Shown piece by piece: positions 13,368 to 31,708 of a stretch of 32,000 nt of DNA (position 1 is its first letter; each line of letters opens with the position of its first letter). Both the position numbers and the translations under genes were made by a program. This DNA comes from Candidatus Helarchaeota ASGARD archaeon Hel_GB_B (GTDB lineage Archaea; Asgardarchaeota; Lokiarchaeia; Helarchaeales; HEL-GB-B). Below the pieces are notes generated by a model. It was not told the origin of the DNA and did not search any database. It saw nothing but the letters and a program-made list of their open reading frames with translations. The stretch spans positions 30,001 through 62,000 of the forward strand of contig SUPR01000004.1 of the NCBI GenBank assembly GCA_005191425.1, in the 5' to 3' direction.

Positions 13368-13451
13368 TTAATATTAATTTAACTTTAATTTTTTTCAGTA
13401 AATTAAAAAATATTTTTTACAATAGGTAAAATAATATAAATAACCTATTTG

Positions 13452-16400
13452 ATGGAATTAAATGAAATGTTTGAGGAATTGCAAAAAGAAGTACAACATT
13501 ATTTTGATAATTTAATTAAAGAAGTCAATGAATGTTATAAAATTGCGCAAAAAGCCAGAAGTAGAGGAAAAGACCCTTACGAAGGAGTAGAAATTCCTCC
13601 AGCTGAAGATGTAGCATCTCGAGTTGAGGAATTAATTGGTCCAAAAGGTGTAAAAAACAGAATTCAAGAATTACAAGAAAAAGGACTGGACAACGAAAAA
13701 ATAGCCTTTAAAATAACTAAAGAAATAATTGATAAAAAATTTATAAAAGATATTGACAAGGCTGAACTTGCAAAACTGGCAATCCGCGCAGGTCTTTGCA
13801 TTTTAACTTCCGGAATAACCGCAGCACCAATAGAAGGCTTAGTAGATGTTAAAATCAGGAAAAATAAAGATGGCACTGAATATATTGCAATGTATTTTTC
13901 AGGCCCAATAAGAGCAGCAGGTGGGACTGCAGCAGCTCAAGCTGTCATGTTAGGCGATTATGTCAGAAAACTAATTAAGTTAGATAGATATAAACCAAGT
14001 AATGACGAAATAGAACGTTATTTAGAAGAAATAATTTTGTATAAAAGATTGAGAAATCTCCAATTTCCTATTAAAGCTAAGTCTATTAGGTCAGCTGCTA
14101 AAAACTGTCCAATAGAAATTACTGGAGAACCTACTGAAAAAGAAGAAGTAACAGGTTATAGAAATATATGGCGAATTAATACGAATAAAGTTAGAGGTGG
14201 TGCATGCTTAGTACTTAATGATGGTATTATTGGAAAAGCTCATAAACTTATGAAAATAGTTGAAAAATTTGATTTTAAAGGTTGGGAATGGTTAAAAGAT
14301 TTACAAGAAAAAGAAGAAGAAATGGAATTAAAAGAAGATTCTGATCCTATTAAACCTAAAGACAAATTTATTGCGGGGATTATTGCTGGTCGTCCAATAT
14401 TTTCTCATCCCTCTAGAAAAGAAGGTTTCAGAATTAGATACGGACGTGTTAGAAATACTGGTCTAGCTGCAGTTGGACTAAATAAATACACAATGAAAAT
14501 TACTGGGAATTTTTTAGTTCAAGGAACGCAATTTATTACCGAACGTCCTGGAAAAGCTTCCATTAGTATTGCAGTTGATTCAATAGAAGGCCCAATTGTT
14601 AAAATTTTTGACGGCTCAGTCATAAAAATAGAAAATGAGATCACTTATAAAAAATATATGGATAAAATTCAGAGAATATTATATTTAGGTGATGTCCTTA
14701 TTGGTTTTGGAGAATTCTTGGAAAATAACCACATTTTAATACCTTCAGGCTATACAGAAGAATGGTGGTGCGCCGAATTTAAAGAAGTATTAAAAAAATA
14801 CTATAATAATCAAATTGAGGAACTGTCCACTAAGTTAAAAATAGATTCGGATAGACTTTCTACCTTATTATCAGATCCATTTTATAATTTTCCAAATGAA
14901 ATTGAAGCAATTAAAATATCTGAAATTTTAGGGCTCCCAATTCACCCAAAATATACATTTTTTTGGGAATATATCACAAGAGATGATGTAATTAAACTCC
15001 GAAACTGGTTGCTGACCGCTAAATATATTGATAATAATAATACAAATAAAAATAATAAAATTTCATCAATAAAAAATATGGAATTAGACTTAAAATCTCA
15101 TTCAGAAGAGAAAAAAATCCTAGAAATATTAGGAATTGAACATTTTGTTAAAGGTGACAAAATAATAATTGCCAAATATTCTTACATTATTCAAAAAATT
15201 TTTAATTTAAATGATCCAGAATCAAACTTTGAATTTATTCTACCGACAAAAAAGAATCATTTTGTAGGAAATTTTTTAAAATACAAAATTAGAGCAAAAG
15301 CTCCTTATAGAATAGGAGGAAGAATGGGGCGCCCCGAAAAAGCAGATGAAAGAGTAAAATTCCATACTTTATTCCCCGTAGGTAATGAAGGTGGAAATAG
15401 ACGAGATATAATTAAAGCGGCAGAAAATAAAATAATATCTTTGGAAATTGTAAATAGAAAATGTCCAAAATGTAACCAAGAGACTATTTATTACATTTGC
15501 CCAAAATGTCATATCCGAACAAAAATTATAACAAAATGCACTAATGTGAATTGTGGTAAAGAAGTCAATTCCGATTATTGTCCATATTGTAAAAGTCCTG
15601 TTAAAACTTATGGATATAAAAAAGTCAATTTAGCTCAAATTTTAAAAACAGCAAAATCTAATATAGAGGAAGAAATCCCTGCCTATATTAAAGGTGTTAA
15701 AGGGTTAATGAACAGACACCATATTTTTGAGCCTCTTGAGAAAGCTATCTTGAGAGTAAAATGGAATTTATATATATTTAGAGATGGAACAATTAGGTTT
15801 GATTCGGTCGATGCTCCATTAACTCATTTTACACCTAAAGAAATAGGGCTTTCTCTTGATAAGCTAAAGAAATTGGGATATTCTAGAGATATTTATGGTA
15901 ATAAGATTGAAAATTCAGAACAAATAATCGAATTAAAACCTCAAGATATAATAATTCCATATAATGGTGCGGATTTTTTAGTAAAAGTAGCTAACTTCAT
16001 AGATGAATTATTAATAAAATTCTATCATCTAAATCCATACTATAATATTGATACAATTGGTGATCTCATTGGGCAAATAGTAATTGGGTTAGCTCCTCAT
16101 ACATCAGCGGGCATAATTGGAAGAATTATCGGTTTTACTAAAAGTAAAATTTGCTATGCACATCCTTATTGGCATGCTGCAAAAAGAAGAAATTGCTTTC
16201 CTGGAGATACTACTATATTAATTAACATAAATGGAGTTCCTAAAAAAGTCTCCTTATATAAATTATATCATGAATTATTTGATAATGAAATTTTCTCCAA
16301 TTCTGTTTTCTCAAAAAATTTACCTAAAAAGGATATTAAAGTTTATTCTTTTGATTTAGAGAGTAAAAAAATAGTATTGACTGAAATTATTGATGTAATA

Positions 16401-17516
16401 AAAAGTCCGGCGCCAGAGCACCTAATTGAAATAATTTTAGAGGATAATCGGGCATTTATTACAACTTATGACCACCCAATCATCGTCTATGCTAATGGAA
16501 AATTTATCGAGAAAAAAGCGCTCGAAATTAACTTAAGAGATAAATTTTTAGTTTATAATAAAAATTATTTTGGGAGCACTGAAAATCTAACCTATAATTC
16601 TTTAAATACTAATGAATTAGAATTTTTAGAAGTTCGGGAGAAAAAGGTGATTAAATCTAATTTTTCATTTGTATATTCATTAAATGCTAAAAAGTATCAT
16701 ACAATATTTGTTAATGATAATATTATGACTCATCAATGTGATGGCGATGAGGACTCTATTATATTATTATTAGATGCTCTTTTAAATTTCTCAAGGTTAT
16801 ACCTTCCTACTACAAGAGGGGGAATGATGGATGCTCCTCTTGTTATTTCGATTATTCTACGTCCAAAAGAAGTTGACAAAGAAGTATTCAATTTGGAAAC
16901 AATTGAGCATTTTCCACTTGAATTTTACGAAGCCACATTAAACTATACCCCACCTAAACAATTATTAGATAAAATTGAGATAATCAATGATAGGCTTGGA
17001 AAACCTGAAGAATATTTTAACATTCATTATACTATACCAAATTCAACGATAAGTTCTAGTCCTACTGTTACAGCTTATAAAAAATACGAAAAAATAAAAG
17101 ATAAAGTCAATGCGCAATTAAGTCTTGGAATTAAAATAGATGCTGTTGATGTCGTAGATGAAGTAAATAGACTATTAAATACACATTTTATACCTGATAT
17201 AATTGGAAATATGAGGGCATTTACAACTCAGCAAATTAGGTGTCCTCGATGTAATTTAAAATTCAGACGAATACCGTTATCAGGAGTATGTCCTCAATGT
17301 AATAACAAATTAATTTTTACTGTTCATGAAGGAGGAATCGTAAAATATCTAGAAATAGCTAAAGAATTAGCTAATAAATTTAAATTAAATGATTATATTA
17401 AACAAAGACTGGAACTTATTGAGAATGATATTAATTCTTTATTTAAAAATCGAAAAAAATCCGTTTTAATTACTAAGTTTTTTAATAATAAAGCTAATAA
17501 TAATAAAAAATCATAA
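13452..17516 (+). CDS. polC: DNA polymerase D large subunit DP2, intein-containing
   Basis: YFSGPIRAAGGTA, RIRYGRVRNTGLA, GGRMGRPEKA, FRDGTIRFD, HAAKRRN|CDGDED, several Cys4 zinc fingers. ATG at 13452 (track start is TTG 13449). Confidence 0.97.
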   Translation: MELNEMFEELQKEVQHYFDNLIKEVNECYKIAQKARSRGKDPYEGVEIPPAEDVASRVEELIGPKGVKNRIQELQEKGLDNEKIAFKITKEIIDKKFIKDIDKAELAKLAIRAGLCILTSGITAAPIEGLVDVKIRKNKDGTEYIAMYFSGPIRAAGGTAAAQAVMLGDYVRKLIKLDRYKPSNDEIERYLEEIILYKRLRNLQFPIKAKSIRSAAKNCPIEITGEPTEKEEVTGYRNIWRINTNKVRGGACLVLNDGIIGKAHKLMKIVEKFDFKGWEWLKDLQEKEEEMELKEDSDPIKPKDKFIAGIIAGRPIFSHPSRKEGFRIRYGRVRNTGLAAVGLNKYTMKITGNFLVQGTQFITERPGKASISIAVDSIEGPIVKIFDGSVIKIENEITYKKYMDKIQRILYLGDVLIGFGEFLENNHILIPSGYTEEWWCAEFKEVLKKYYNNQIEELSTKLKIDSDRLSTLLSDPFYNFPNEIEAIKISEILGLPIHPKYTFFWEYITRDDVIKLRNWLLTAKYIDNNNTNKNNKISSIKNMELDLKSHSEEKKILEILGIEHFVKGDKIIIAKYSYIIQKIFNLNDPESNFEFILPTKKNHFVGNFLKYKIRAKAPYRIGGRMGRPEKADERVKFHTLFPVGNEGGNRRDIIKAAENKIISLEIVNRKCPKCNQETIYYICPKCHIRTKIITKCTNVNCGKEVNSDYCPYCKSPVKTYGYKKVNLAQILKTAKSNIEEEIPAYIKGVKGLMNRHHIFEPLEKAILRVKWNLYIFRDGTIRFDSVDAPLTHFTPKEIGLSLDKLKKLGYSRDIYGNKIENSEQIIELKPQDIIIPYNGADFLVKVANFIDELLIKFYHLNPYYNIDTIGDLIGQIVIGLAPHTSAGIIGRIIGFTKSKICYAHPYWHAAKRRNCFPGDTTILININGVPKKVSLYKLYHELFDNEIFSNSVFSKNLPKKDIKVYSFDLESKKIVLTEIIDVIKSPAPEHLIEIILEDNRAFITTYDHPIIVYANGKFIEKKALEINLRDKFLVYNKNYFGSTENLTYNSLNTNELEFLEVREKKVIKSNFSFVYSLNAKKYHTIFVNDNIMTHQCDGDEDSIILLLDALLNFSRLYLPTTRGGMMDAPLVISIILRPKEVDKEVFNLETIEHFPLEFYEATLNYTPPKQLLDKIEIINDRLGKPEEYFNIHYTIPNSTISSSPTVTAYKKYEKIKDKVNAQLSLGIKIDAVDVVDEVNRLLNTHFIPDIIGNMRAFTTQQIRCPRCNLKFRRIPLSGVCPQCNNKLIFTVHEGGIVKYLEIAKELANKFKLNDYIKQRLELIENDINSLFKNRKKSVLITKFFNNKANNNKKS
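16194..16736 (+). mobile_element. Mini-intein (181 aa, Cys1...His-Gln, Cys+1) in DP2, with no homing endonuclease
   Basis: In-frame insert splitting the conserved HAAKRRN/CDGDED; block A CFPGDT, block B TTYDHP, C-terminus VYSLNAKKYH...MTHQ followed by C; no LAGLIDADG motif. Confidence 0.95.
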
Positions 17517-17531
17517 TGCATTAATTCCTAT

Positions 17532-18386
17532 TCAGAGTTTGAAATCAGGATTTAATAGGACTTTTATTAAATCTATATCGTAAATCATTCCCAATAATTT
17601 ATCATTTACGTTCATCACTGGTAATTGGTCTAGAAGGAATTTTCCCATTTTATTAGCGCAGTCATGAATTGTACTTAATTCATTAACAACTTGAATTTGT
17701 CCTTTCTTGACCATGACATCTTTTACTTGTTTATCAGGTAATTGTAATTCTTTTTTAGTGATTAATAATGTATCTGCAGTCCCCCAGCTCCACTCATAAT
17801 CTTCTGTTGCAGATAAAGAACTTGCATATTCCTCTACAATTACTTCGCTTTCTTTCATTAATTCCTCATAGCTTAAAATCCCTGATAAATTACCAGAATC
17901 ATCTATACATGGAATTACTGTAATATTTGAAATTTGCATTATATATAATGCTACTTGTAATGGTGTTCCGTCCCAAATAGAAATAGTCCCTGTTTTTACA
18001 AAAGGCTTAATTGGATCTTTAAAATTTTTCTTGGCCAAAATTTTTTTAATAATTAGGTGAACTGTTAAAAGTCCTACTATTTGTTCCCCATCTAAAACTA
18101 CAATAATTCTATTTTTAGTATCAGTAATTAATTTTATTGCTTCTTTAATATCAGTATCTTGTTGGATTGTTATTGGATTTCTATTCATTAATATTGCAAG
18201 GTCTTCTTCATCTGGATTTTTAATTAATTCTATTGGTGAAACTGTTCCTAGTAATTTTTCCGTATCTTTCTTTAAAATAGGGATTAATTTCAAATTATAC
18301 TTTTTAATTAATTCAAGAGCAGAATCCCTACTTCCAGGTACATAAAGCTTTTGAAATTCAGTCCTCATTATATCCTTAACAAGCAA
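17532..18386 (-). CDS. CBS-domain protein (two Bateman pairs)
   Basis: LVKDIM, LMNRNPITI, VKDVMVK, LPVMNVNDKLLGMI; TTG start with GAGGT at 18394-18398. Confidence 0.88.
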   Translation of the reverse strand: MLVKDIMRTEFQKLYVPGSRDSALELIKKYNLKLIPILKKDTEKLLGTVSPIELIKNPDEEDLAILMNRNPITIQQDTDIKEAIKLITDTKNRIIVVLDGEQIVGLLTVHLIIKKILAKKNFKDPIKPFVKTGTISIWDGTPLQVALYIMQISNITVIPCIDDSGNLSGILSYEELMKESEVIVEEYASSLSATEDYEWSWGTADTLLITKKELQLPDKQVKDVMVKKGQIQVVNELSTIHDCANKMGKFLLDQLPVMNVNDKLLGMIYDIDLIKVLLNPDFKL

Positions 18387-18603
18387 ACTTCTGACCTCAT
18401 TAACAGTTTTACAAGTAAATAATATTTTAAATTTATATTTTTTTTAAATTTAAACTAAATTTTGGATTGTATTAAAATAAAAATCTCTCAATATTTACTT
18501 TTATTAAATATATAATATAAAAACCTTTTTTAATTGAGATTTTACCACTAATTAAAGATTCTATTAAACAACTTTTTAAAATAGATACATAATTTTTGAT
18601 AAA

Positions 18604-18906
18604 TTACTTAAATTCACACGAACAAGGTTTATTTTTACATTTTGGACAAACCTGATTATATTTTTTTATTGAACTTTCTTGTAAATCTATACCAATAATA
18701 TTAGCTAATGAGCATAACCATGCAAAAACATCTGCAAATTCCTCACTTATATTACTAAAGTCTTTATTAATATCTATCTTATTTATTGCTCTTGAAAGCT
18801 CCCCAACTTCTTCTACCAACCACATAAATGTTTTACTAATTCCTCTTTTTTTGTCTCGTTCGAAATACAAATCATACATTAACTTTTGAAAATCTTTTAT
18901 TTTAAT
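18604..18906 (-). CDS. MazG-like nucleotide pyrophosphohydrolase
   Basis: WLVEEVGELSRA, EEFADVFAWLCSLAN, C-terminal CPKC...CSC. Start extended from ATG 18879 to a putative ATT at 18906 (see findings); product call is firm, start is not. Confidence 0.85.
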   Translation of the reverse strand: MKIKDFQKLMYDLYFERDKKRGISKTFMWLVEEVGELSRAINKIDINKDFSNISEEFADVFAWLCSLANIIGIDLQESSIKKYNQVCPKCKNKPCSCEFK

Positions 18907-19252: not shown

Positions 19253-19870
19253 TTATTCTTCAAGAGATTTTTTCAATTCGTCAATTTGTTCCTGTAATTG
19301 TTTCTTTTTAGTAGAAACAGGTTCCGTTGAAGGGACTTCAGGGATAATACCCGCCGTTTCTAGCTGGTCTTCCATTTCTAATCTATTTAATTCTCGTTCC
19401 ACATCTAAATCTTCCAATTCATCTCCACCGATTGCCGTTTCAAAAATATCGCCAACTCTTTCTATCTCAGCAATACTTTCTTCTGTTTCTAGACTAATTT
19501 CCAGAGCTCTATCAGATGAAACAATTTTTCTCGCTGCTTGTAATTCTTTACTAGCTAATTCCATCGCAGAAGTAAGCGTCTGGATATCAGCAGCTTCTTC
19601 AAGCGCTATAATACGGTCTTCTAATCTATTTGTAAAAGCAGTATAACGATTAGCCATCTTTTGAAATTTTGACCACCGCGCTAAATATTGTTTTGCAGAT
19701 TTTTTATTTCCGGCTTTTAAGAATTGCCTTGCCCGTCTATGGCTATCCGCGGCTCTTTTTACAAAAACTTTTTGTCTTAATTCTAATTTATTGATTGATG
19801 CTCTTAACTCTGCTATAGCATCCTCTTTCTTAGGCTTTTTACCCGGGAATAATTTTTTAAAAACACTCAT
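19253..19870 (-). CDS. ESCRT-III, Snf7/Vps20/32/60 class (ESCRT-IIIB)
   Basis: MSVFKKLF amphipathic N-terminus, basic helical hairpin (EDAIAELR..GNKKSAKQYL), acidic C-half, MIM2-like IPEVPS. Confidence 0.9.
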   Translation of the reverse strand: MSVFKKLFPGKKPKKEDAIAELRASINKLELRQKVFVKRAADSHRRARQFLKAGNKKSAKQYLARWSKFQKMANRYTAFTNRLEDRIIALEEAADIQTLTSAMELASKELQAARKIVSSDRALEISLETEESIAEIERVGDIFETAIGGDELEDLDVERELNRLEMEDQLETAGIIPEVPSTEPVSTKKKQLQEQIDELKKSLEE

Positions 19871-20026
19871 AATTATTGACCATAATTGTTGTTATTATTC
19901 TATAAGCTTTTTTTTAATTAATAACTTTGGCATTATCAATTTTCAATTTAAAGAATTAATTCCTTTTAAACAACTATTAATTCATAAAGTAATAAAAATA
20001 TTCGTAAGGATGTTTACAATTTAATA

Positions 20027-20050
20027 TTATTAGTCGGGTTATTAGTCGGG
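20027..20050 (+). repeat. Perfect 12-bp tandem repeat upstream of ESCRT-IIIB
   Basis: TTATTAGTCGGG twice (20027-20038, 20039-20050). Confidence 0.9.
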
Positions 20051-20168
20051 TATAAAAGGAAAAATTGAATTCTAAGAATTTTAAATTTTAATGTTTTTGT
20101 TATTTTGATTTATTCCTTAGGATATTATTAATTTTTGACCTTATAATCTTTTATATAATATATTTTTT

Positions 20169-22940
20169 TTAAATTTCAATCATTGAGGCATTGATAATTT
20201 CATTCATTAATTCTTTTAATTCGTCTAGTTTATTATTATCTGTTGATACGCCTATAAGTGTTGCTATATTATTTGTTTTTGATTTTGTTGCTGTGAGGGC
20301 AATTTTACAGTCTTCTTTTTCAAACAATATAACCGGTATCTCTACTTGAATATTTATATTATTACAAATCCAATTTTTGTTTTTCAGAAATTTATAAGCT
20401 TTTTTAAGGAATTCATTTGGGTTTTCTTTAATTTCTTTTGAAATATCTGTGGAAAATGTTTGTTCTTTGAAATTAAATAAGTATTGATAAAATTTGTAAG
20501 TAATGAACCTCTTATTATATGCCATTAATGCTGGAATAGGTAGATTAATTTCAATGTTTTGAATTTGGTCAATTTTATTTTCTTCATTAATTTCAAGTTC
20601 TGTTCCTAATATTGTTTTTTCAATTTCGGAATCTGAAATTGAGCTATCTTCCATTTCAGCATTAAAATCTATAAATTTAGATGTTTCTCCACCAACAACT
20701 TTAGGTAATTCTTCGTTATCTTTTTGATTATTTTCTGTTGTATTTAGACTTTTTTCTTTTTCCAGAGTTTCAACTGGTATTACTGGCTGATCCATTGCAT
20801 CTATGATATCTGGGAGTGATTCACGTCCTGCATGCTGACTGCACCTTGGTCTTACATGTAAAACAAAACATCTTGAAGTACTTATTGATTCATCAGCAAT
20901 TAAACCACTACCCACAGCCATACTCCTAAAAAAGCTAGATTTTTCTACATCTTTAGGTATATCTCCTGGGATCCGCGTAACTAGTGCATTGATGTCGGTC
21001 TTATAAGTTAATAAGTGTGATAGAAGAATATCTAATTGTGATAAAATTTGTGAGTTAGTAGCAGCTGGCTGTTGGGTAACTAAAACAAGACCGCATCCTG
21101 GTTTTCTCCCCAATTTTGCATATTGAATTAATGGTTCTGATGCAGCTGTTTTTCCACTTGAAGGTATTAAAAGATGAGCTTCATCAATTAATAACCATGT
21201 TACTGGAATTTCATTTATTCCAGTCTCAACTTTTACAGATCTATCAACTTTTGCTGCATCTAATCTCCTTGAAATCCTTAATCTCTCTTTTAAAATTTTT
21301 CGTGCTAAAATTCCTATTATTAAAGATCTTAGCCCCTCTTCTAAAAAACTAACATCAATTACAGAAATTTGGTTAGGTACTGAAAGATCACTTAATTTAG
21401 TACCTGTATTTGAAAATATACCCCAATCTCTTGCTATTTCAAGTCGCGAAATAACAGCTCTTCTAGTCCTCACATCAAAACCTTGTGATTTTGAAGTTAA
21501 CATTCGAGATTCATTTATACAATCTATTAGATCAGCTAAAGTAAAATAATCTCCCATTCTAGGGACTGGAATTCCAAATTCGTCAATATATCCTTCTCTT
21601 ACTTGGTTTATTGCTTTTTCAATTAGAATTCCTCTCGGACTAAATCTATCAATTCCAAATGTATAACACCAATCATCTGCAGTTAATTCACTTGGTAAAA
21701 GAGAAAAAGCCTCATCACGGGTAGCTTCAGAACATGAATTGTAAAAACCTAATGGAACAAAAATTTTCACTTTTTCTGCAAATGACTTTGGTTCTAAACC
21801 CCATTTTTTTAATACATCTACCTCTTTACTTGTCCAATTTCCAAATTTCATACTCCAAAAAATTCCCATTGGATCGACAATTATAGTCCCAATTCCTATA
21901 TTTGTCTTGGCCAATTCCTCGGCTATAACTCCCATTGTATATGATTTCCCAGAACCTCGGTGACCACAAATGAAAATAACATGTGGTTTTACACAATCTA
22001 AATATATATCTCTCCCAAAATGACCTAAACTCTGTTCTGGTTTTTCACAAACTTTACCAATATATAATAGACCTCGATTTCCAATTTTTTTATGAAAACT
22101 TCTAGACCTCCCCAAAATTCCCACGTTTTTTTCTTCATCAATTAAAATTTCAAGTTCCTCGCTTATTATAGGTGTATAATCACCAAATAAATCATGTTTC
22201 CAGTTTTCAATTTCACCAATTGCATAGGCTGTGGCTATATACAAATCTTTAGCTGTCTTTAATTCTGAAATCATGTTGTCTAATATATATCTTCTCAAAT
22301 CAAGAGAAGTAGGATAATACTCTTTTTCATACCCTGATATTTCCCAAATAAAATAATCTAATGAATCATCCTTGGACAAATCATCAAACGGTTCAACAAG
22401 CGTATATGCAGGCGCTAAGTAATCTGGATTTCGAGTCAAAAGATACAATAGAATATAAAACTTAAAATCATTGATTGATTCTAACTTTTCTTCAATGATC
22501 TCTAAAATCTTATTTTTGTATCTTTCATCTATTGTCCTTTTATATACAAAATACAAAATTTGAAAATTAATAAATTTTAATTCGTCAAGGTTTATATTAA
22601 TAACATCTTCTTGGAATTCTTTAACATAATTACTAACTTCTTTTAAATTCTTTAATTCTACAAGTCTATAATATAACAAAATCAAATTAATACTATTTTC
22701 ATCTAAATTTTTTCTATCTATAGTTTGTAAGTCATTTCTAGGCCCCTTTGAAAAAATGTTTTTCTCAATTCTTGAAAAAATATCTTCACCATATTTTTCA
22801 TCGATAGCTAATTTATATAAATTAATATATGCCAGTGAAAGTAGTATCCTTTCATTAATATCGTCTGGATCAGGCTCATAATTCCATAATTGATTGGTAA
22901 TTTTTTGAATTATTGTATAATTTAACACTTTATCACACAT
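20169..22940 (-). CDS. HerA/FtsK-superfamily (DUF87-type) ATPase with extra N- and C-terminal domains
   Basis: Walker A GHRGSGKS (21942-21965), IIVDPMGIF, Walker B WLLIDEAH, GRKPGCGLVLVTQQP, VRPRCSQHAG; ~270-aa N-terminal and ~220-aa C-terminal additions. Confidence 0.88.
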   Translation of the reverse strand: MCDKVLNYTIIQKITNQLWNYEPDPDDINERILLSLAYINLYKLAIDEKYGEDIFSRIEKNIFSKGPRNDLQTIDRKNLDENSINLILLYYRLVELKNLKEVSNYVKEFQEDVININLDELKFINFQILYFVYKRTIDERYKNKILEIIEEKLESINDFKFYILLYLLTRNPDYLAPAYTLVEPFDDLSKDDSLDYFIWEISGYEKEYYPTSLDLRRYILDNMISELKTAKDLYIATAYAIGEIENWKHDLFGDYTPIISEELEILIDEEKNVGILGRSRSFHKKIGNRGLLYIGKVCEKPEQSLGHFGRDIYLDCVKPHVIFICGHRGSGKSYTMGVIAEELAKTNIGIGTIIVDPMGIFWSMKFGNWTSKEVDVLKKWGLEPKSFAEKVKIFVPLGFYNSCSEATRDEAFSLLPSELTADDWCYTFGIDRFSPRGILIEKAINQVREGYIDEFGIPVPRMGDYFTLADLIDCINESRMLTSKSQGFDVRTRRAVISRLEIARDWGIFSNTGTKLSDLSVPNQISVIDVSFLEEGLRSLIIGILARKILKERLRISRRLDAAKVDRSVKVETGINEIPVTWLLIDEAHLLIPSSGKTAASEPLIQYAKLGRKPGCGLVLVTQQPAATNSQILSQLDILLSHLLTYKTDINALVTRIPGDIPKDVEKSSFFRSMAVGSGLIADESISTSRCFVLHVRPRCSQHAGRESLPDIIDAMDQPVIPVETLEKEKSLNTTENNQKDNEELPKVVGGETSKFIDFNAEMEDSSISDSEIEKTILGTELEINEENKIDQIQNIEINLPIPALMAYNKRFITYKFYQYLFNFKEQTFSTDISKEIKENPNEFLKKAYKFLKNKNWICNNINIQVEIPVILFEKEDCKIALTATKSKTNNIATLIGVSTDNNKLDELKELMNEIINASMIEI

Positions 22941-23283
22941 TCTTATTTTTTTAACATTAATTTCTTATTATAATATTAATTATCATAATCATATTATAAA
23001 ATTTAATTTTTAATAAATTCTCTTTAAAAAAAATTTAGATTTCCCAAAATAAAAAATTTCGTATTTTTTTAAATAATTATTATGGTAAACTTGATTAATT
23101 GACTGATTCTCTGGTTAATTTAATAACAATTGAAAATATTTTTGAAAAATTGTGTTCACTGTTTTTAATTAAAGTTGTTTATTGTATTAAAAATTTCATT
23201 ATTATTTAAATTCTTTTTATTTATATCGATTAATTCTAAATTGAGTAAAAAAAGGTCATAAACAAGGTACATAAATTTTAAAA

Positions 23284-23886
23284 CTATTTTTCCTCTTTTA
23301 GTCTTTTAATTTCCTTTTCAAGTTCAGCTATTCTTGATGGTGTTGATGGTAATGCCATACCTGTTTCTACTGAAATTTCTTGGTCAATTTCTGCCAAAAC
23401 TTTATTGGTTTCTTGGGGTGAAACTTCTGTCTTTACGGTAATATTTTGAATTCCATCTTGTGCCATGTCTTGGGCTATATCGAACCCTTCAATTTGAGAA
23501 TCAATTTGGTCTATAATCTGTGTAACATTCTGGATATTAACTGATGAACGTAGTCCATTTAATGCTCTATGGATTCCGCTCAAGATTTTAGCCGTTTCAG
23601 CAGTTGCTTGGGTCTGTTTTAATTTCATTAATAAACCCATGATATGTAGACGATAAGTATCAACTCCTAATGCCCATTTTTGAAACCTTACCGTATTTTC
23701 TGCATATAATTTAGCAGCTGCATCGTTTCCTTGTTCTCTATATTTTCTTGCCCTTGCTCTATTCTGAAGACTTTCCTTTTCCAATGTTTTCCTTTGATAA
23801 TCTAATTTCCTACAAAATACATCAATCTTAAATATCAAATTCTTAAGATTATTTCCTTTTAACCAGTTAATGAATTTTGACGCCAT
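23284..23886 (-). CDS. ESCRT-III, Vps2/24/46 (Did2/CHMP1-like) class (ESCRT-IIIA)
   Basis: QGNDAAAKLYAENTVR resembles recalled CHMP1 KGNMEVARIHAENAIR; C-terminal MIM1-like helix IAELEKEIKRLK. Confidence 0.9.
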   Translation of the reverse strand: MASKFINWLKGNNLKNLIFKIDVFCRKLDYQRKTLEKESLQNRARARKYREQGNDAAAKLYAENTVRFQKWALGVDTYRLHIMGLLMKLKQTQATAETAKILSGIHRALNGLRSSVNIQNVTQIIDQIDSQIEGFDIAQDMAQDGIQNITVKTEVSPQETNKVLAEIDQEISVETGMALPSTPSRIAELEKEIKRLKEEK

Positions 23887-24559: not shown

Positions 24560-25744
24560 ATGAGTAAGATATTATTTCAGAAAGCAATGGAAATAGCAAA
24601 AAATGCGATTGCTTTAGACGAAGAAGGTAATTATGATACAGCGATTAAAAGGTATTTAGAATCTGCAGATATATTAATGCGATATATTCAATTATCAACG
24701 AATCCCGAAATGAAACGTATTTGTTATGAACGAGCTCAGGAATATATTAGACGTGCAAGTGAGTTAAGAGAGGCGACTCCTTCTCGGCGTCGAAAGGTAT
24801 CAAGACCAAGAGGTAAAAGAAAAGATGGAAAGGCCCCTAAAAGTTCTGAGCCCTTAACTGAAGAAGAAGAAAAATTAAGAGATGCTATTTCTGAAACAAT
24901 TGTTGTTGAAAAGCCAAATATAAAATTATCAGAAGTAGCTAACTTAGAAACTGCAAAACAGGCATTAAGAGAATCTATTATATTACCCATTTTAAGGCCA
25001 GATCTTTTTAAAGGTGGAAGACAACCTTGGAAGGGGATATTATTATATGGCCCGCCCGGATGTGGTAAGACTTATTTGTCCAAAGCAATTGCCACTGAAT
25101 GCGATGCGACTTTTTTGAATGCTGATGCCGCATCTTTAGTATCAAAGTGGCTTGGTGAATCTGAGCGTCTGATAAAAGAATTATTCTCATTGGCAAGAGA
25201 GGAAGCGCCATCTATTGTTTTTATTGATGAGGTTGATAGTATTGCCACTGCACGAGGCGCTAAAGAAATGGGCGGTGAGAGACGAATAAAAACGCAGTTA
25301 TTAATTGAAATGGACGGGATGAAAGCAAAAAAAGATGAACGGATAATAATTCTAGGTGCAACAAATAGACCATGGGATCTTGATGCAGCATTTAGAAGAA
25401 GATTTGAAAAGAAAATATATATTGGTCTTCCAGACGTTAAAGCTAGGGAACTAATGTTTAAGTTAAATACTAGAGAAGTTGAAATTGCACCAGACATAGA
25501 TTTTAGTGAATTTGCAAAATTAACTGAAGGTTATACCGGGTCTGATATTTCACTCTTATGTCGTGAAGCTGTAATGATGCCTATCAGGGAAATCGATTTA
25601 ACCCAAGATATTACTCGTATTGACAAAGTCCGACCAGTATCAAGAGATGATTTTATTGCAGCAATGGAAAAAATCAAACCAGTTGTTTCTCCCGAAGAAT
25701 TAAAACAATACGATGAATGGACACAAAATTATGGAATGGAATGA
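24560..25744 (+). CDS. vps4: Vps4 AAA+ ATPase (MIT domain + AAA domain)
   Basis: N-terminal MIT (AMEIAKNAIALDEEGNYDTAIKRY), GPPGCGKT, FIDEVD, ATNRPWDLDAAFRRRF. Confidence 0.95.
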   Translation: MSKILFQKAMEIAKNAIALDEEGNYDTAIKRYLESADILMRYIQLSTNPEMKRICYERAQEYIRRASELREATPSRRRKVSRPRGKRKDGKAPKSSEPLTEEEEKLRDAISETIVVEKPNIKLSEVANLETAKQALRESIILPILRPDLFKGGRQPWKGILLYGPPGCGKTYLSKAIATECDATFLNADAASLVSKWLGESERLIKELFSLAREEAPSIVFIDEVDSIATARGAKEMGGERRIKTQLLIEMDGMKAKKDERIIILGATNRPWDLDAAFRRRFEKKIYIGLPDVKARELMFKLNTREVEIAPDIDFSEFAKLTEGYTGSDISLLCREAVMMPIREIDLTQDITRIDKVRPVSRDDFIAAMEKIKPVVSPEELKQYDEWTQNYGME

Positions 25745-26573
25745 ACTTAATATGGAAGAAGGTATAAAAAAGAAAAAAGAACAAGAAGAGGAAAAAGGTG
25801 AAGAAAAATCAGTTGAAGACCTAGAAAATGAATTAAAAAAACTACAACAAAAAATAAATGCAAGCACTGGAATTGCTAAGCGAAAATTAGCTAAAAAAAT
25901 AGAAAATAATTCAAAAATATCTGAACATAAGAGTGTTAACCTCAGTACAAATATGATATCTTTGTCTGAAACGGAAATAAAGAAAGAAGATGAACGAGGA
26001 ACTCAAATTAAAAAATTATGGGAAATTTATAAATGGGCTGATAACCATGAAAAATTTCCTTGGATGTATTTTATACCTGACAAAAAGTCTAGCGGAGATA
26101 ATTGGAAAGAAAACTTCGAAGCATGGAAAAATGATTGGGTAAAATTCACTATTGATTGGGCACGTGTCTATATATTTCATATTCTTGATATGTATGAAAT
26201 AGTTAAAGAAAAACCATATATTTTTCTTAATGAACGAGAAAAAGCAATCAATATTATTTTTAAAAATCTTGTTGATATGAAACGAGGAAAAAATAAATTA
26301 GCCCAATGGATTGGTAAAGATAAAAACAAGATCCGAATATATTGGAGAAGTCTAGATGAATGGGCTAATTTGTTATATGAATGGGCAATTAATGGTGGAG
26401 GAGATATTTTTACATTAATCGATTTAAAAAAAGCAGGTGAAGAGATTCCTGGATTCGATACATTACCAGATGAGGATATAAGAGAAATAATCAATATTCT
26501 AGTTAGGCAAAAAAAAGCCAGATGGATTGACAAACAATTAATTAGAGTAAAAATATTGGTTAAAGGACTTTAA
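25713..26573 (+). CDS. vps25: ESCRT-II subunit Vps25 with N-terminal extension
   Basis: FPWMYFIP (compare recalled human WPWQYRFPP), tandem winged helices, IYWRSLDEWANLLYEWA. Start could be 25713, 25731 or 25752; the first two overlap the vps4 3' end. Confidence 0.88.
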   Translation: MNGHKIMEWNELNMEEGIKKKKEQEEEKGEEKSVEDLENELKKLQQKINASTGIAKRKLAKKIENNSKISEHKSVNLSTNMISLSETEIKKEDERGTQIKKLWEIYKWADNHEKFPWMYFIPDKKSSGDNWKENFEAWKNDWVKFTIDWARVYIFHILDMYEIVKEKPYIFLNEREKAINIIFKNLVDMKRGKNKLAQWIGKDKNKIRIYWRSLDEWANLLYEWAINGGGDIFTLIDLKKAGEEIPGFDTLPDEDIREIINILVRQKKARWIDKQLIRVKILVKGL

Positions 26574-26586
26574 TTATTTGTATGAA

Positions 26587-27309
26587 TTAGCCACCAAGAC
26601 CTGGAAAATAATATCTTTTACCAGTAGCATAAGATAAATCAACCTTGGCTATATTATTATCTATTAAAGTTTGCAAAACTCTTTCAATGCGATCTTGGGT
26701 CCAATTTGTATTCATTAAGATCTCTTCTAATGTTATATAACCTTTTTTTGATGCCAAATTTAATATTATACTTTGATCTGGCGTTAATTCTACTGGAATA
26801 AATTCTACAATTTTTATTCCAGAATCTAATTTTTTAATTCCTGGAATGATGTCTGCATTTTCGAGTATATTTATTGCTTTAATTACATCCAAGGCAGATA
26901 CCACATCATTTGGTCTCCCTTCATTGATCATCAACACTACTTCTGCAAGAGTCATTATTCCACCGGTCTCAAGTATTTTCTTTTTAGCCATATTTAAAAT
27001 TTGGACACTTAATTGATTATAAAATTGTCCTTTCCCCGTGATTTTTTCTATCATATTTGGTTTGACTTTAAATTTTTCACTAGGTATTTCTGACATACCT
27101 ATTTCTAGCCTAATTTTCTTTAATTTTTCTTGATATTCTGGGTTTTCTACAATTAAATCTCCATATTTATTTTCAAATTCTTCTATTTGTTTTCTTAATT
27201 CTTTAACTGAATTCAACATTAATTCCAATTCTTTAACCATATATTCAGGTGATTTTTTTTTGATTTTGGCCCTTAATTCAATATCTTTTTCAATCTCCCG
27301 TAAACCCAA
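26587..27309 (-). CDS. vps22: ESCRT-II subunit Vps22/36 (EAP30 family, Vps22/SNF8-like)
   Basis: FYNQLSVQI, GGIMTLAEV, PVELTPDQSIILNLA..KGYITLEEI, YYFPGL; TTG start with AGGTGA at 27317-27322. Confidence 0.92.
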   Translation of the reverse strand: MGLREIEKDIELRAKIKKKSPEYMVKELELMLNSVKELRKQIEEFENKYGDLIVENPEYQEKLKKIRLEIGMSEIPSEKFKVKPNMIEKITGKGQFYNQLSVQILNMAKKKILETGGIMTLAEVVLMINEGRPNDVVSALDVIKAINILENADIIPGIKKLDSGIKIVEFIPVELTPDQSIILNLASKKGYITLEEILMNTNWTQDRIERVLQTLIDNNIAKVDLSYATGKRYYFPGLGG

Positions 27310-27369: not shown

Positions 27370-28329
27370 TTAGAGGTCTTGAAGGCGCCTCTTAAAGTCT
27401 TGGGCCCATCTAACCACATCAAATTCCAATTCACTATTTTCATCAGAATCCAGTATTTCATTCGGATTTTTTACTGATAATTTTTCTCTCCATTGATTGG
27501 CTGCTTTATATACCCAGTAATCCTTTCCAAAACCTGGAAATTTTTCTATAATTAATAAAATATCATCTAATATAGGCATGATTGAACTAACTTTTGCCAT
27601 ATCTAATTTTGTATAATCTGAAATTGTAATAAAATGTGCCACAAGATCCGAACTCATTGTAGCTATCTTAGCTTTAGAAACACTTGCAATTTCAAGCGGT
27701 GAAATTTCAACAATTGATTTCTCGGAAAACCTTAATTTTTGAGTCGCAAAAGGAAATCGTTCCGCAATTTTTTCTCTCTTTAAGAATTCTTCCATATTAT
27801 AATCTATTTCTTTTAATTCTAACTGAGCTTTAAATGCATCTCTCATTAAAGACCGTAATTGCCTTTTATAAGTGGGCGGGTCTAATTTTCCCTCTTCAAA
27901 ATTCTTAATTACACTGTTCAATGTGGCAATACACGAATAAAATTCAGCTTCTATTTTTAGTCGGTCGTCTTCAGTAATCTTTTTTCTAATTTTTATTTTT
28001 GATTTATCCAATTTTGAAGTTTTCTGGGCAGTTTTTCGCGTTTTTTCTATATTTTTTGGCTCTAGATCTATTTTCTTTTGTACTTTATTTATTGAATTAT
28101 TTTGGCCTTTTTTTTCCTCCTTTACAAATTGCTTTTCTTCCAGATTTTTATTATCTACTTCTTTTGTTTTAACTTTATCTTTTATTATTTCTTTTGTAGT
28201 TACTGTTTTTCGTGCCAATTCCGATTGTAATAATGCTAATTCTTCTTCCAACTCTTCTATGGTCTTATCGTCTGCTAATTTATCTTCTTCTATCTTCCTT
28301 TTCTCTAATAAACTCATATCAGCAACCAT
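27370..28329 (-). CDS. vps28: ESCRT-I subunit Vps28 with N-terminal extension
   Basis: Core hairpin EFYSCIATLNSV..Y..QLRSL and C-terminal four-helix bundle VAHFITISD..IMPILDDI..ANQWREKL..LEFDV. Confidence 0.88.
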   Translation of the reverse strand: MVADMSLLEKRKIEEDKLADDKTIEELEEELALLQSELARKTVTTKEIIKDKVKTKEVDNKNLEEKQFVKEEKKGQNNSINKVQKKIDLEPKNIEKTRKTAQKTSKLDKSKIKIRKKITEDDRLKIEAEFYSCIATLNSVIKNFEEGKLDPPTYKRQLRSLMRDAFKAQLELKEIDYNMEEFLKREKIAERFPFATQKLRFSEKSIVEISPLEIASVSKAKIATMSSDLVAHFITISDYTKLDMAKVSSIMPILDDILLIIEKFPGFGKDYWVYKAANQWREKLSVKNPNEILDSDENSELEFDVVRWAQDFKRRLQDL

Positions 28330-28413: not shown

Positions 28414-29190
28414 TTAACTCGATTTAAGCTCTTCAAGTTTCTTATTTATCAAATATAGATTTTTTGTATATTTTTTATATAATCTAGAATATTCTCCTGA
28501 ACCTATCTCTGCATTATCAAATTTTTCCTCAAGCGTCTGAAGAAGATCTTCTATTGCTATTTTTTCACTTTCCAAATCGATAATTTGTTTTTTAATTGGA
28601 TCTGAAGGTAATAATATGCTTTCTAAATTACTTGTACCCTCATCTGGGACATTATGGACGTCCAGTTGCCCTCTTAAATGTGCAACAACTTCATCTCTTT
28701 GAGTTAATCCATCTCTCAGTGAATTAATTTCAGATTCAAGTCTCTTCACTTCTCTCTCTAATTTTTCCTCTTTACTTGATGGAATATATGAAACTGGTTC
28801 ATGTTCTGGTTCTTTTTTTGCTTGAAGATTCCTATTTAAAAGGGAGGCTAATTTTGGGGGTACACGTGCATATAACCCTTTTATTGAATTAATTACTTGA
28901 TAAACATGATAATCTGGTCTCCAATATGTTAAAATTCGAAGATGAACTTGACCATTCTCATCAACTTTTGGATGTTCTGTTGGGGTTATCATTTTTACTG
29001 TAGGTGGCTTTTTAGGAAAAGCGTCAGGTATTCTTATTTCCAACTCGAAATTTGTATTTTTATATTCACCTCTACCCGGAATACTACCCCTCCAAATTTT
29101 TAAATTACCACCTACTGGCTCAAATTCTTTCGCGCGTTTATATAATAATTCTGCTTCTTTTGCCAATATAAAGTCAAGCTGTTCTGACAT
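28414..29190 (-). CDS. vps23: ESCRT-I subunit Vps23/37 (UEV domain, coiled coil, steadiness box)
   Basis: E2-fold N-terminus without catalytic Cys (HPKVDENGQVHL); coiled coil; steadiness box LESEKIAIEDLLQTLEEKF..EI...EY.RLY. Confidence 0.9.
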   Translation of the reverse strand: MSEQLDFILAKEAELLYKRAKEFEPVGGNLKIWRGSIPGRGEYKNTNFELEIRIPDAFPKKPPTVKMITPTEHPKVDENGQVHLRILTYWRPDYHVYQVINSIKGLYARVPPKLASLLNRNLQAKKEPEHEPVSYIPSSKEEKLEREVKRLESEINSLRDGLTQRDEVVAHLRGQLDVHNVPDEGTSNLESILLPSDPIKKQIIDLESEKIAIEDLLQTLEEKFDNAEIGSGEYSRLYKKYTKNLYLINKKLEELKSS

Positions 29191-30799: not shown

Positions 30800-31048
30800 T
30801 TAATTTTTCGGGGAACCCCCTTCGGTCCGTGCAATTAAATAAAGTTTATCGTAATCATTTATCCCAACATCTGCTAAGCTCTGGTTTTCATTCCTAATTT
30901 CAGTACCTCTAAATGCTAATACAAAAATCGATGTAGGAATACGTTTTCTTTGTGAAATTTCTCGCTTTAAATCAACAATTCTCGTATTTGGAGGTACTTG
31001 AATTTCCATTACATCTCCACCAATAGCACTAACAATCCTAATAATCAT
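30800..31048 (-). CDS. Ubiquitin-like modifier precursor (GG followed by SPKN)
   Basis: Beta-grasp pattern, LAFRG, C-terminus LYLIARTEGG-SPKN. Confidence 0.9.
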   Translation of the reverse strand: MIIRIVSAIGGDVMEIQVPPNTRIVDLKREISQRKRIPTSIFVLAFRGTEIRNENQSLADVGINDYDKLYLIARTEGGSPKN

Positions 31049-31255: not shown

Positions 31256-31708
31256 CTATAAATTATCCCATCGAGCATATTTCTCCAAATAATATTTTAC
31301 TTCTTCTTCATATCTTTTATGATTTGTTTTCATCTGATTTGCTGCTTCTGAATTTAAAGGAGAATTTGGATTTGGAAAATTTAACAAGTTTCTTAATGCT
31401 TCAATTAGCCCTGCAATAGACATAGTCGGCGTCCAATCTTTTCCCATTGCTCCAACACATACTCTTTTTTTGTATATATTTGGATGCCAAATTGGCGTTA
31501 ACCACTTTACTCTAGGTGATTCATAAGGAAATTTGCGAGTAACAGTTATTTGAATCTTAAAAACGCCTCCCTCATACATACCTGTGCCTAAGATAAACCC
31601 TTCCCACATTGTTAAATCTCCACCTATTGGCTTAAAACTGGGTTCCTCTTCCTCTAATATCTTAGCTTCATAAGCTAATCTTGCATAAAAGTCTTCATCG
31701 CTTAACAT
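31256..31708 (-). CDS. Ubiquitin-conjugating enzyme E2, catalytic residues intact
   Basis: YEGGVFKI, FPYESPRV, WHPNI, catalytic Cys in RVCV, WTPTMSI, PNPNSPLNSEAA. Confidence 0.94.
   Translation of the reverse strand: MLSDEDFYARLAYEAKILEEEEPSFKPIGGDLTMWEGFILGTGMYEGGVFKIQITVTRKFPYESPRVKWLTPIWHPNIYKKRVCVGAMGKDWTPTMSIAGLIEALRNLLNFPNPNSPLNSEAANQMKTNHKRYEEEVKYYLEKYARWDNL

Follow-up and report, generated by a model that had tools for sequence, protein, structure and literature searches.

ESCRT-III (endosomal sorting complex required for transport III) and Vps4 are treated as a complete membrane-scission machine, and the ESCRT loci of Asgard archaea are read as a prototype of the eukaryotic pathway. 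Among the ATPases of the HerA/FtsK superfamily, characterised HerA and FtsK are pumps for double-stranded DNA. Here, we describe a 923-amino-acid (aa) ATPase of this superfamily encoded between two ESCRT-III genes (ESCRT-IIIA and ESCRT-IIIB) in a 32,000-nucleotide stretch of DNA (the window; G000:C128:30001-62000; ~28% GC) from a 3.5-Mb metagenome-assembled genome of Helarchaeales type, the closest protein relatives of which bear the label ‘Candidatus Helarchaeota’. Comparison of sequences and gene neighbourhoods makes it likely that the ATPase is a genuine functional partner of ESCRT-III; more tentatively, and with slightly less than even confidence, we read it as a dedicated accessory ring translocase of an archaeal ESCRT-III module, with DNA as the likeliest polymer.

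The remainder of the locus corresponds to the published Asgard ubiquitin-ESCRT cluster (Hatano et al., 2022, PMC9192718; Makarova et al., 2024, PMC11188069), with matches to its genes for ubiquitin, E2, UEV-Vps23, Vps28, Vps22/36, Vps25, Vps4, ESCRT-IIIA and ESCRT-IIIB. The synteny figure in PMC9192718 colours only genes with ubiquitin or ESCRT domains, no HerA, FtsK, DUF87 or P-loop component is mentioned in the main text of either article, and a full-text literature search returned no description of a HerA/FtsK/DUF87-type ATPase tied to Asgard ESCRT-III or Snf7. In the window, ESCRT-IIIA, the ATPase and ESCRT-IIIB are co-directional inside a full ubiquitin/ESCRT-I/II/III/Vps4 locus (Table 1), and no Snf7 gene besides these two was found in the whole genome. 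An initial annotation, made from the letters of the window, had pointed out this arrangement, together with gaps of 343 and 298 bp and intact Walker motifs; the open reading frames (ORFs) and Pfam matches agree, and both gap lengths are exact.

Assignment of the ATPase core rests on Pfam matches to DUF87 (aa 312–549; E 3.6e-13; 50.6 bits against a cut-off of 23.2) and HerA_C (aa 572–644; 28.7 bits against a cut-off of 22). Walker A (G326-T335), Walker B (D586, E587) and a GRK...TQQP motif are all present and are 94–100% conserved in 62 full-length homologues. Across the alignment of these homologues, the core of ~460 aa is 41–61% identical within the ESCRT-linked clade; identity to euryarchaeal and DPANN relatives is 45–49% over ~460 residues. 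The best matches among solved structures are HerA proteins (e.g. PDB 4d2i, 9x1l), at E 4e-7 to 5e-4 over ~140 residues. By sequence, then, the protein is a member of the HerA/FtsK superfamily of P-loop translocases, with a catalytic core that is conserved and looks active. Pfam yielded only DUF87 and HerA_C, with no FtsK_SpoIIIE, MIT or AAA match in the 923 aa, and no transmembrane segment was found (the maximum 19-residue Kyte-Doolittle window is 1.42).

The earlier label of ‘HerA/FtsK family’ stands at the level of the superfamily but not below it, as the sequence comparisons indicate neither a canonical HerA nor an FtsK, and instead a third divergent paralogue in this genome. Were the protein a canonical HerA DNA-end-resection helicase displaced from its operon, the DUF87 and HerA_C matches would be expected, and canonical HerA (HerA-NurA(-Mre11-Rad50)) does have in common with it the superfamily, Walker A/B, a GRK...TQ(Q/R)P motif and, presumably, a hexameric ring. 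However, canonical HerA is ~500–560 aa long and has a NurA partner and an N-terminal barrel, whereas the window ATPase has 923 aa, no NurA and other N- and C-terminal domains, with an alpha/alpha toroid at the N-terminus in place of the barrel. Scores against the NCBIfam HerA equivalogs fall far under their cut-offs (NF040819, 46.7 bits versus 970; NF040937, 37.5 versus 800), and in an IQ-TREE phylogeny (C20 posterior mean site frequency model, PMSF; 74 rows) the family is split from the two canonical HerA proteins of the genome by a branch length of 3.1, with 99% support in the Shimodaira-Hasegawa-like approximate likelihood-ratio test (SH-aLRT). The absence of nurA, mre11 and rad50 from the window, as first annotated, was borne out: contig C98 of the same genome carries a complete nurA-herA-mre11-rad50 operon, C139 carries a further nurA-herA pair, and nurA was not adjacent in any orthologous locus inspected. 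Because that operon sits elsewhere and the branch is long and separate, we do not regard the ATPase as the repair HerA, and displacement of a canonical HerA is effectively excluded, with the slimmest chance of any explanation considered here.

Other described ATPases differ in other ways. FtsK/SpoIIIE has the superfamily in common and offers a working analogy, that of a ring DNA pump tied to a membrane-constriction machine, but it has a membrane anchor and a winged-helix gamma domain, neither of which is present here, and the partner of the window ATPase would be ESCRT-III, not FtsZ. Vps4/CdvC (the ESCRT-IV ATPase) is likewise encoded with ESCRT-III, but is an AAA+ protein with an MIT domain, whereas the window ATPase is of the HerA/FtsK class, has no MIT domain and occurs with Vps4 kept alongside. 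No CedA-like membrane neighbour (the context of CedB) was seen in the window. The archaeal DUF87 family of Methanofastidiosia, Theionarchaea, Thermoplasmata and DPANN has a similar core and interleaves with the window ATPase in the tree; its members are often fused to DUF835, SAP or TrmB, and are without the alpha/alpha toroid and mostly without the C-terminal domain. In one Methanofastidiosia relative a TrmB-like gene comes next, and hhalign found no homology between that gene and the ATPase C-terminal domain.

Linkage to ESCRT-III extends well beyond the window. A single-protein search of genome contigs recovered the sister genome only. A profile of the N-terminal domain was run over 400 genomes of the phylum, with neighbourhoods annotated using profiles built for the analysis (family codes f1–f33 are GTDB families; taxonomic names on genomes and bins are the submitters’ own labels), and detected this architecture in 32 genomes from nine families. 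All genomes of f18 (12/12), f21 (6/6) and f26 (3/3) are carriers, as are 2/5 in f20; no carrier was found in the large families f4 (0/135), f13 (0/31) and f5 (0/14). A Snf7 gene lies within 3 kb of the ATPase in 24 of the 32 carriers, representing eight of the nine families; among the remaining eight genomes, the contig end is too near in four and the available sequence holds no Snf7 in four (three from f18, one from f8). As the 24 genomes are kin, the independent count is about eight families.

Carriers outside the window protein’s own family show 40–47% overall identity to it. Their genes follow the order Snf7A-ATPase-Snf7B, in some with an additional protein after the ATPase, or a subset of it, in one direction, with gaps of ~5–110 bp in most other lineages (5–50 bp in the Jordarchaeia-type operons, ~50–110 bp in f2), and gene calls on public contigs, on which gaps of 5–50 bp are frequent, agree with these patterns. 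Within the taxonomic order of the window genome, ESCRT-IIIA-ATPase-ESCRT-IIIB is found again in G001, G002, G004 and G006 (two families, 42–77% identity), and the equivalent Snf7A-ATPase-Snf7B in f1, f2, f20, f32 and f33. Family f21 (labelled Jordarchaeia/Freyarchaeota) has Snf7A-ATPase-345-aa protein-Snf7B, f26 has Vps25-Vps4 divergent from Snf7A-ATPase-345-aa protein, and f18 (submitter label Heimdallarchaeota) has ATPase-303-aa protein-Snf7B. Counted by gene, ESCRT-IIIA is directly upstream of the ATPase in f1, f2, f20, f21, f26, f32 and f33, and ESCRT-IIIB is downstream in f1, f2, f18, f20, f21, f32 and f33.

The additional protein that follows the ATPase in f21, f26 and f18 is conserved and all-helical, with 303–373 aa (P0258–P0260; L027:10071-11108, L029:9633-10667, L030:9924-10835). 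It has no Pfam, PADLOC or Atlas match, and no homologue was found in the window genome with the 345-aa protein as query. In G006, ESCRT-IIIA (L024:966-1614) is broken by an in-frame TAA into 112 and 120 aa, as a pseudogene or through an assembly error, while an apparent ESCRT-IIIA-ATPase fusion in G004 (a 1169-aa open frame) was rejected, since a stretch of N in the contig accounts for it.

The C-terminal domain reaches further, occurring in 11 cluster representatives without an N-terminal-domain match (one being a truncated Jordarchaeia protein). Three of these were inspected and all three sit in ESCRT loci, with the N-terminal domain absent or shortened: a Bathyarchaeota-labelled bin encodes, in order, the ATPase, Vps4(MIT), Snf7, a second Snf7-like protein, a Vps25-like protein, SPFH and EAP30; a Nitrososphaeria-labelled bin has ATPase-Vps4(MIT); and a JGI metagenome contig carries Snf7-Snf7-like-Vps25-like-ATPase as a single string of genes, with Vps4 oriented divergently from it. 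Loci L093, L094 and L199, in which the ATPase is shorter (core plus C-terminal domain), also encode a Ser/Thr kinase and an FHA protein. The negative control comprised 67 loci of distant core relatives, three of them euryarchaeal or DPANN and 64 from a metagenome scan that returned nothing but such relatives; none has Snf7 or an MIT-bearing Vps4 nearby.

With 24 of 32 carrier genomes linked, against 0/67 of the distant-relative loci, the adjacency of ATPase and ESCRT-III genes is far beyond chance. Conserved and co-directional as it is, and absent in paralogues, it gives good support at the level of gene order to the ATPase as a component of an archaeal ESCRT-III gene module. The initial annotation had proposed a second ATPase belonging to this module, and comparative genomics, through eight Asgard families and three non-Asgard-labelled loci, supports that proposal well: the linkage is not confined to one genome, nor do orthologues stand beside nurA.

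Two explanations would make the position of the ATPase incidental. It might be a co-regulated neighbour that acts on the chromosome (in segregation, resolution or repair) and lies beside ESCRT-III only for shared expression timing, which would suit the unrelated neighbourhoods of the family outside the ESCRT-linked clade, the long window gaps with T-tracts and those f18 genomes that have the ATPase and its partner protein without a nearby Snf7. We judge this improbable, as the adjacency holds in eight Asgard families and again in non-Asgard ESCRT loci with other gene arrangements, clade-specific N- and C-terminal domains follow the linkage, and the Jordarchaeia-type gaps are so short. Alternatively, a HerA from a defence island or mobile element (of Sir2-HerA, DUF4297-HerA or MADS type) could have been inserted in the ESCRT locus by chance, and weak PADLOC matches to mad8 (E 1e-18) and HerA models were indeed obtained. 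Yet the neighbours are ESCRT genes, and neither an effector nor any further defence gene adjoins the ATPase; NF042943, the anti-phage HerA model of NCBIfam, gives 22.5 bits against a cut-off of 800, the position is kept over deep divergence and the region does not stand out from the rest of the window in GC content. This origin is effectively excluded as well.

FastTree, applied to 239 cores, placed all members with an N- and/or C-terminal domain in a clade of 119 rows (99% support), most of them in a weakly supported 78-row subclade in which members with the C-terminal domain only are scattered between members that have the two domains. In the IQ-TREE phylogeny, the ESCRT-linked lineages fall in a polytomy with euryarchaeal and DPANN groups.

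In the 62-homologue alignment, the N-terminal domain (~250 aa) is 15–33% identical beyond close relatives, and the linker plus a C-terminal domain of ~135 aa is 11–29% identical. AlphaFold2 modelled the N-terminal domain, which has an isoelectric point (pI) of 4.6, as 12 helices at a predicted local distance difference test score (pLDDT) of 89. Its top structural matches are all (alpha/alpha)6 barrels, namely GH76/GH88, thioester domains and LanC-like proteins (Z ~11; root-mean-square deviation ~4 Å over ~230 residues), a likeness that, on the model, is one of fold and not of homology. An MIT-like reading of the domain was rejected in view of this 12-helix toroid. For aa 712–923, the model shows an acidic disordered linker followed by a confident alpha+beta domain (pLDDT >90), which matches phosphoglucomutase domain 4 (Z 10.3) as well as Bet v1/START, KA1 and the adaptin appendage platform (Z 7.5–9.3; adaptin appendage platform Z 7.5–8.5); in the AlphaFold DB it matches a ‘TrmB C-terminal domain’ protein (E 4e-7) and DUF3568 (E 1.4e-4). 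This is the sole accessory part common to all ESCRT-linked members, and because TBP-fold/adaptin-appendage-like domains, DUF3568 included, recur in archaeal ESCRT loci (PMC11188069), it is a plausible coupler.

From these parts we would propose that the ATPase, as a P-loop translocase of the HerA/FtsK superfamily, forms a ring and reaches ESCRT-III assemblies by means of accessory parts specific to its clade. Recruitment would most plausibly fall to the TBP/adaptin-platform-like domain at the C-terminus, held on a flexible acidic tether, and in Asgard archaea to the N-terminal toroid as well. Once at ESCRT-III, the ATPase might use ATP to thread a polymer through the pore of the ring, a step of which we are less sure. 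Double-stranded DNA could in this way be cleared from, or loaded through, a membrane neck constricted by ESCRT-IIIB/IIIA while Vps4 remodels the filament, which would make the ATPase a soluble counterpart of FtsK at the bacterial septum.

The polymer itself is the more doubtful part of this proposal. DNA is suggested as the family substrate because Pfam detects fusions of the core to SAP, TrmB, MarR or further winged-helix domains in paralogous branches, and because a TrmB-like gene follows the core gene in a relative; a DNA substrate for this ATPase is accordingly conceivable, though we hold it at rather less than even confidence. A motor directed at protein, threading or remodelling ESCRT-III subunits or cargo as a second disassembly or loading machine beside Vps4, is also to be weighed. 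The HerA/FtsK superfamily includes the protein-secretion ATPases EssC/EccC and VirB4, in several lineages the two ESCRT-III genes flank the ATPase gene and Vps4 adjoins it, and the accessory domains are acidic or neutral and not DNA-binding folds, with a C-terminal domain that resembles the peptide-binding adaptin platform and membrane-binding KA1 (Z ~8). Against such a motor, Vps4 is kept in every genome checked, leaving no obvious need for a second disassembly machine, paralogous branches carry DNA-binding fusions and the ESCRT-IIIA tails are without a feature specific to ATPase-bearing genomes; we consider it unlikely, as we do the co-regulated neighbour. The initial idea of a motor moving DNA or protein through an ESCRT neck thus finds DNA favoured by the SAP- and winged-helix-fused relatives, and its cell-division version weakened, since FtsZ is kept in all five ATPase-bearing genomes checked. 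A correlation of the ATPase with absence of FtsZ was rejected on the same five genomes.

Several other observations weigh against a dedicated DNA translocase of ESCRT-III. The gene is absent from 368 of the 400 Asgard genomes, including 0/135 and 0/14 in the two other large families of the class, and at least two f18 genomes with long contigs show no Snf7 near the ATPase. Judging by the lack of carriers in these two families, no cultured Asgard strain appears to have the gene. With the gene absent from most Asgard genomes, and missing from G003 (see below), the ATPase is dispensable for core ESCRT function. Asgard ESCRT is argued to be likelier to serve sorting and vesicles than division (PMC11188069), a view that suits the presence of FtsZ in the five genomes checked, and a septum-clearing role is not required. 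The C-terminal tails of ESCRT-IIIA are alike with and without the ATPase, with no ATPase-specific motif, while the window gaps are AT-rich with T-tracts, allowing separate transcription. The N-terminal domain is acidic and not MIT-like, neither accessory domain shows a recognised ESCRT-III-binding or DNA-binding fold among its structure matches, and the matches (Z 8–11) are of the ‘common arrangement’ kind. Finally, monophyly of the ESCRT-linked ATPases is only not rejected (approximately unbiased test, p = 0.19; 31 domain-bearing rows); by these sequences, a single origin of the architecture is allowed.

Within the order, two f3 genomes depart from the arrangement of the window. In G003 (L198:7605-8848), ESCRT-IIIA and ESCRT-IIIB abut with no ATPase between them, indicating loss or that the gene was never gained. 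In G005 (L197:8167-9642), a compact HerA-like ATPase of 491 aa with intact Walker A/B lies between two ESCRT-IIIA copies and ESCRT-IIIB, in a syntenic Vps25-Vps4...MazG-CBS-PolD block; in the tree its long branch joins canonical HerA, away from the window’s family, and the protein is either a non-orthologous replacement or a case of extreme divergence. Replacement of Vps4 by the ATPase in Jordarchaeia-type operons without a nearby Vps4 was considered and rejected, as a Vps4 orthologue (49–56% identity) is encoded at another place in Jordarchaeia-type and f18 genomes. Since neither Vps4 nor FtsZ is given up where the ATPase occurs, gene content marks the ATPase as an add-on and not a replacement.

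Further features were noted around these loci. Data sets listed for the window are DNA metagenomes from vents and sediments, with none of RNA among them. The Vps4 and Vps25 ORFs of the window share 32 nt, an overlap suggestive of translational coupling between ESCRT-IV and ESCRT-II genes. A conserved coiled-coil protein is also encoded on the minus strand, listed between UEV-Vps23 and ubiquitin. A MazG-like pyrophosphohydrolase and a CBS-domain protein come after ESCRT-IIIB and form, with DNA polymerase D (PolD), a block kept across the order (G002, G004, G005, G006). The PolD large subunit contains an intein (N-terminal splicing region at aa 916–1013), and its tblastn match in relatives is interrupted at the intein position. 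In the f20/f21 (Jordarchaeia-type) and f33 loci, a protein of ~490–530 aa picked up by the UEV-Vps23 profile is convergent on ESCRT-IIIB (L026-L028, L031, L032, L063-L068, L072-L073, L087). Several unrelated lineages, some without ESCRT genes, encode a Cdc48/VAT-type double-AAA ATPase of ~730–740 aa at a distance of a few kb from the DUF87 ATPase (L030, L074, L081-L083 in f18; L090, L106 in non-Asgard relatives; L032/L087 in f20).

Table 1: Features of the ESCRT locus and its flank, in window coordinates.
Feature	Position	Strand	Evidence or remark
PolD large subunit, with intein	13449-17516	+	
MazG-like pyrophosphohydrolase and CBS-domain protein	17532-18879	-	
ESCRT-IIIB (Vps20/32/60-like), 205 aa	19253..19870	-	Pfam Snf7, E 1.2e-17
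Intergenic gap, 298 bp, AT-rich	19871..20168	-	Sequence
ATPase ORF, 923 aa	20169-22940	-	Pfam DUF87 and HerA_C
ATPase C-terminal alpha+beta domain, aa 786-923, TBP-like / helix-grip fold	20172..20585	-	pLDDT >90
ATPase disordered acidic linker, aa 712-785	20586..20807	-	pLDDT <65; pI 4.05
HerA/FtsK-superfamily ATPase core, aa 255-711	20808..22178	-	Pfam DUF87, HerA_C
Walker B of the 923-aa ATPase	21174-21194	-	
Walker A of the 923-aa ATPase	21942-21965	-	
ATPase N-terminal domain, aa 1-252, acidic 12-helix alpha/alpha toroid	22185..22940	-	AlphaFold2 model
Intergenic gap, 343 bp	22941..23283	-	Very AT-rich; T-tract right after ESCRT-IIIA stop codon
ESCRT-IIIA (Vps2/24/46-like), 200 aa	23284..23886	-	Pfam Snf7, E 4.1e-18
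Vps4 (MIT + AAA + Vps4_C), divergent from ESCRT-IIIA	24560..25744	+	Pfam
Overlap of Vps4 and Vps25 ORFs	25713-25744		
Vps25-like ESCRT-II subunit	25713..26573	+	Pfam ESCRT-II, E 1.2e-12
Vps22/36-like (EAP30) ESCRT-II subunit	26587..27309	-	Pfam EAP30, E 2.8e-23
Vps28-like ESCRT-I subunit	27370..28329	-	Pfam VPS28, E 3.4e-16
UEV/E2-like + Vps23 core (ESCRT-I)	28414..29190	-	Pfam UQ_con, UEV, Vps23_core
Ubiquitin-like protein	30800..31048	-	Pfam ubiquitin, E 7.2e-9
E2 ubiquitin-conjugating enzyme	31256..31708	-	Pfam UQ_con, E 5.3e-31

If the ATPase does translocate DNA at ESCRT-III, some Asgard and a few other archaea would couple ESCRT-III scission to a dedicated DNA pump and use membrane necks to move or clear nucleic acid, a conclusion that we put forward as an outside prospect, on balance unlikely; to our knowledge, no eukaryotic or crenarchaeal ESCRT system couples scission to a DNA pump. 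Such coupling could serve to load vesicles or protrusions with DNA, to transfer it between cells or to clear chromosomes in an abscission-like manner. The ATPase probably works together with the machinery inherited by eukaryotes, as a partner not recognised so far. The presence of a second, unrelated ring motor in many lineages would imply either an archaeal task unforeseen by the eukaryotic model, with DNA or another polymer at the neck, or an ancestral component that was lost; either way, the question can be tested directly with recombinant proteins, and the ESCRT-linked clade would provide a first functional handle on a very large, uncharacterised family of archaeal HerA-like ATPases.

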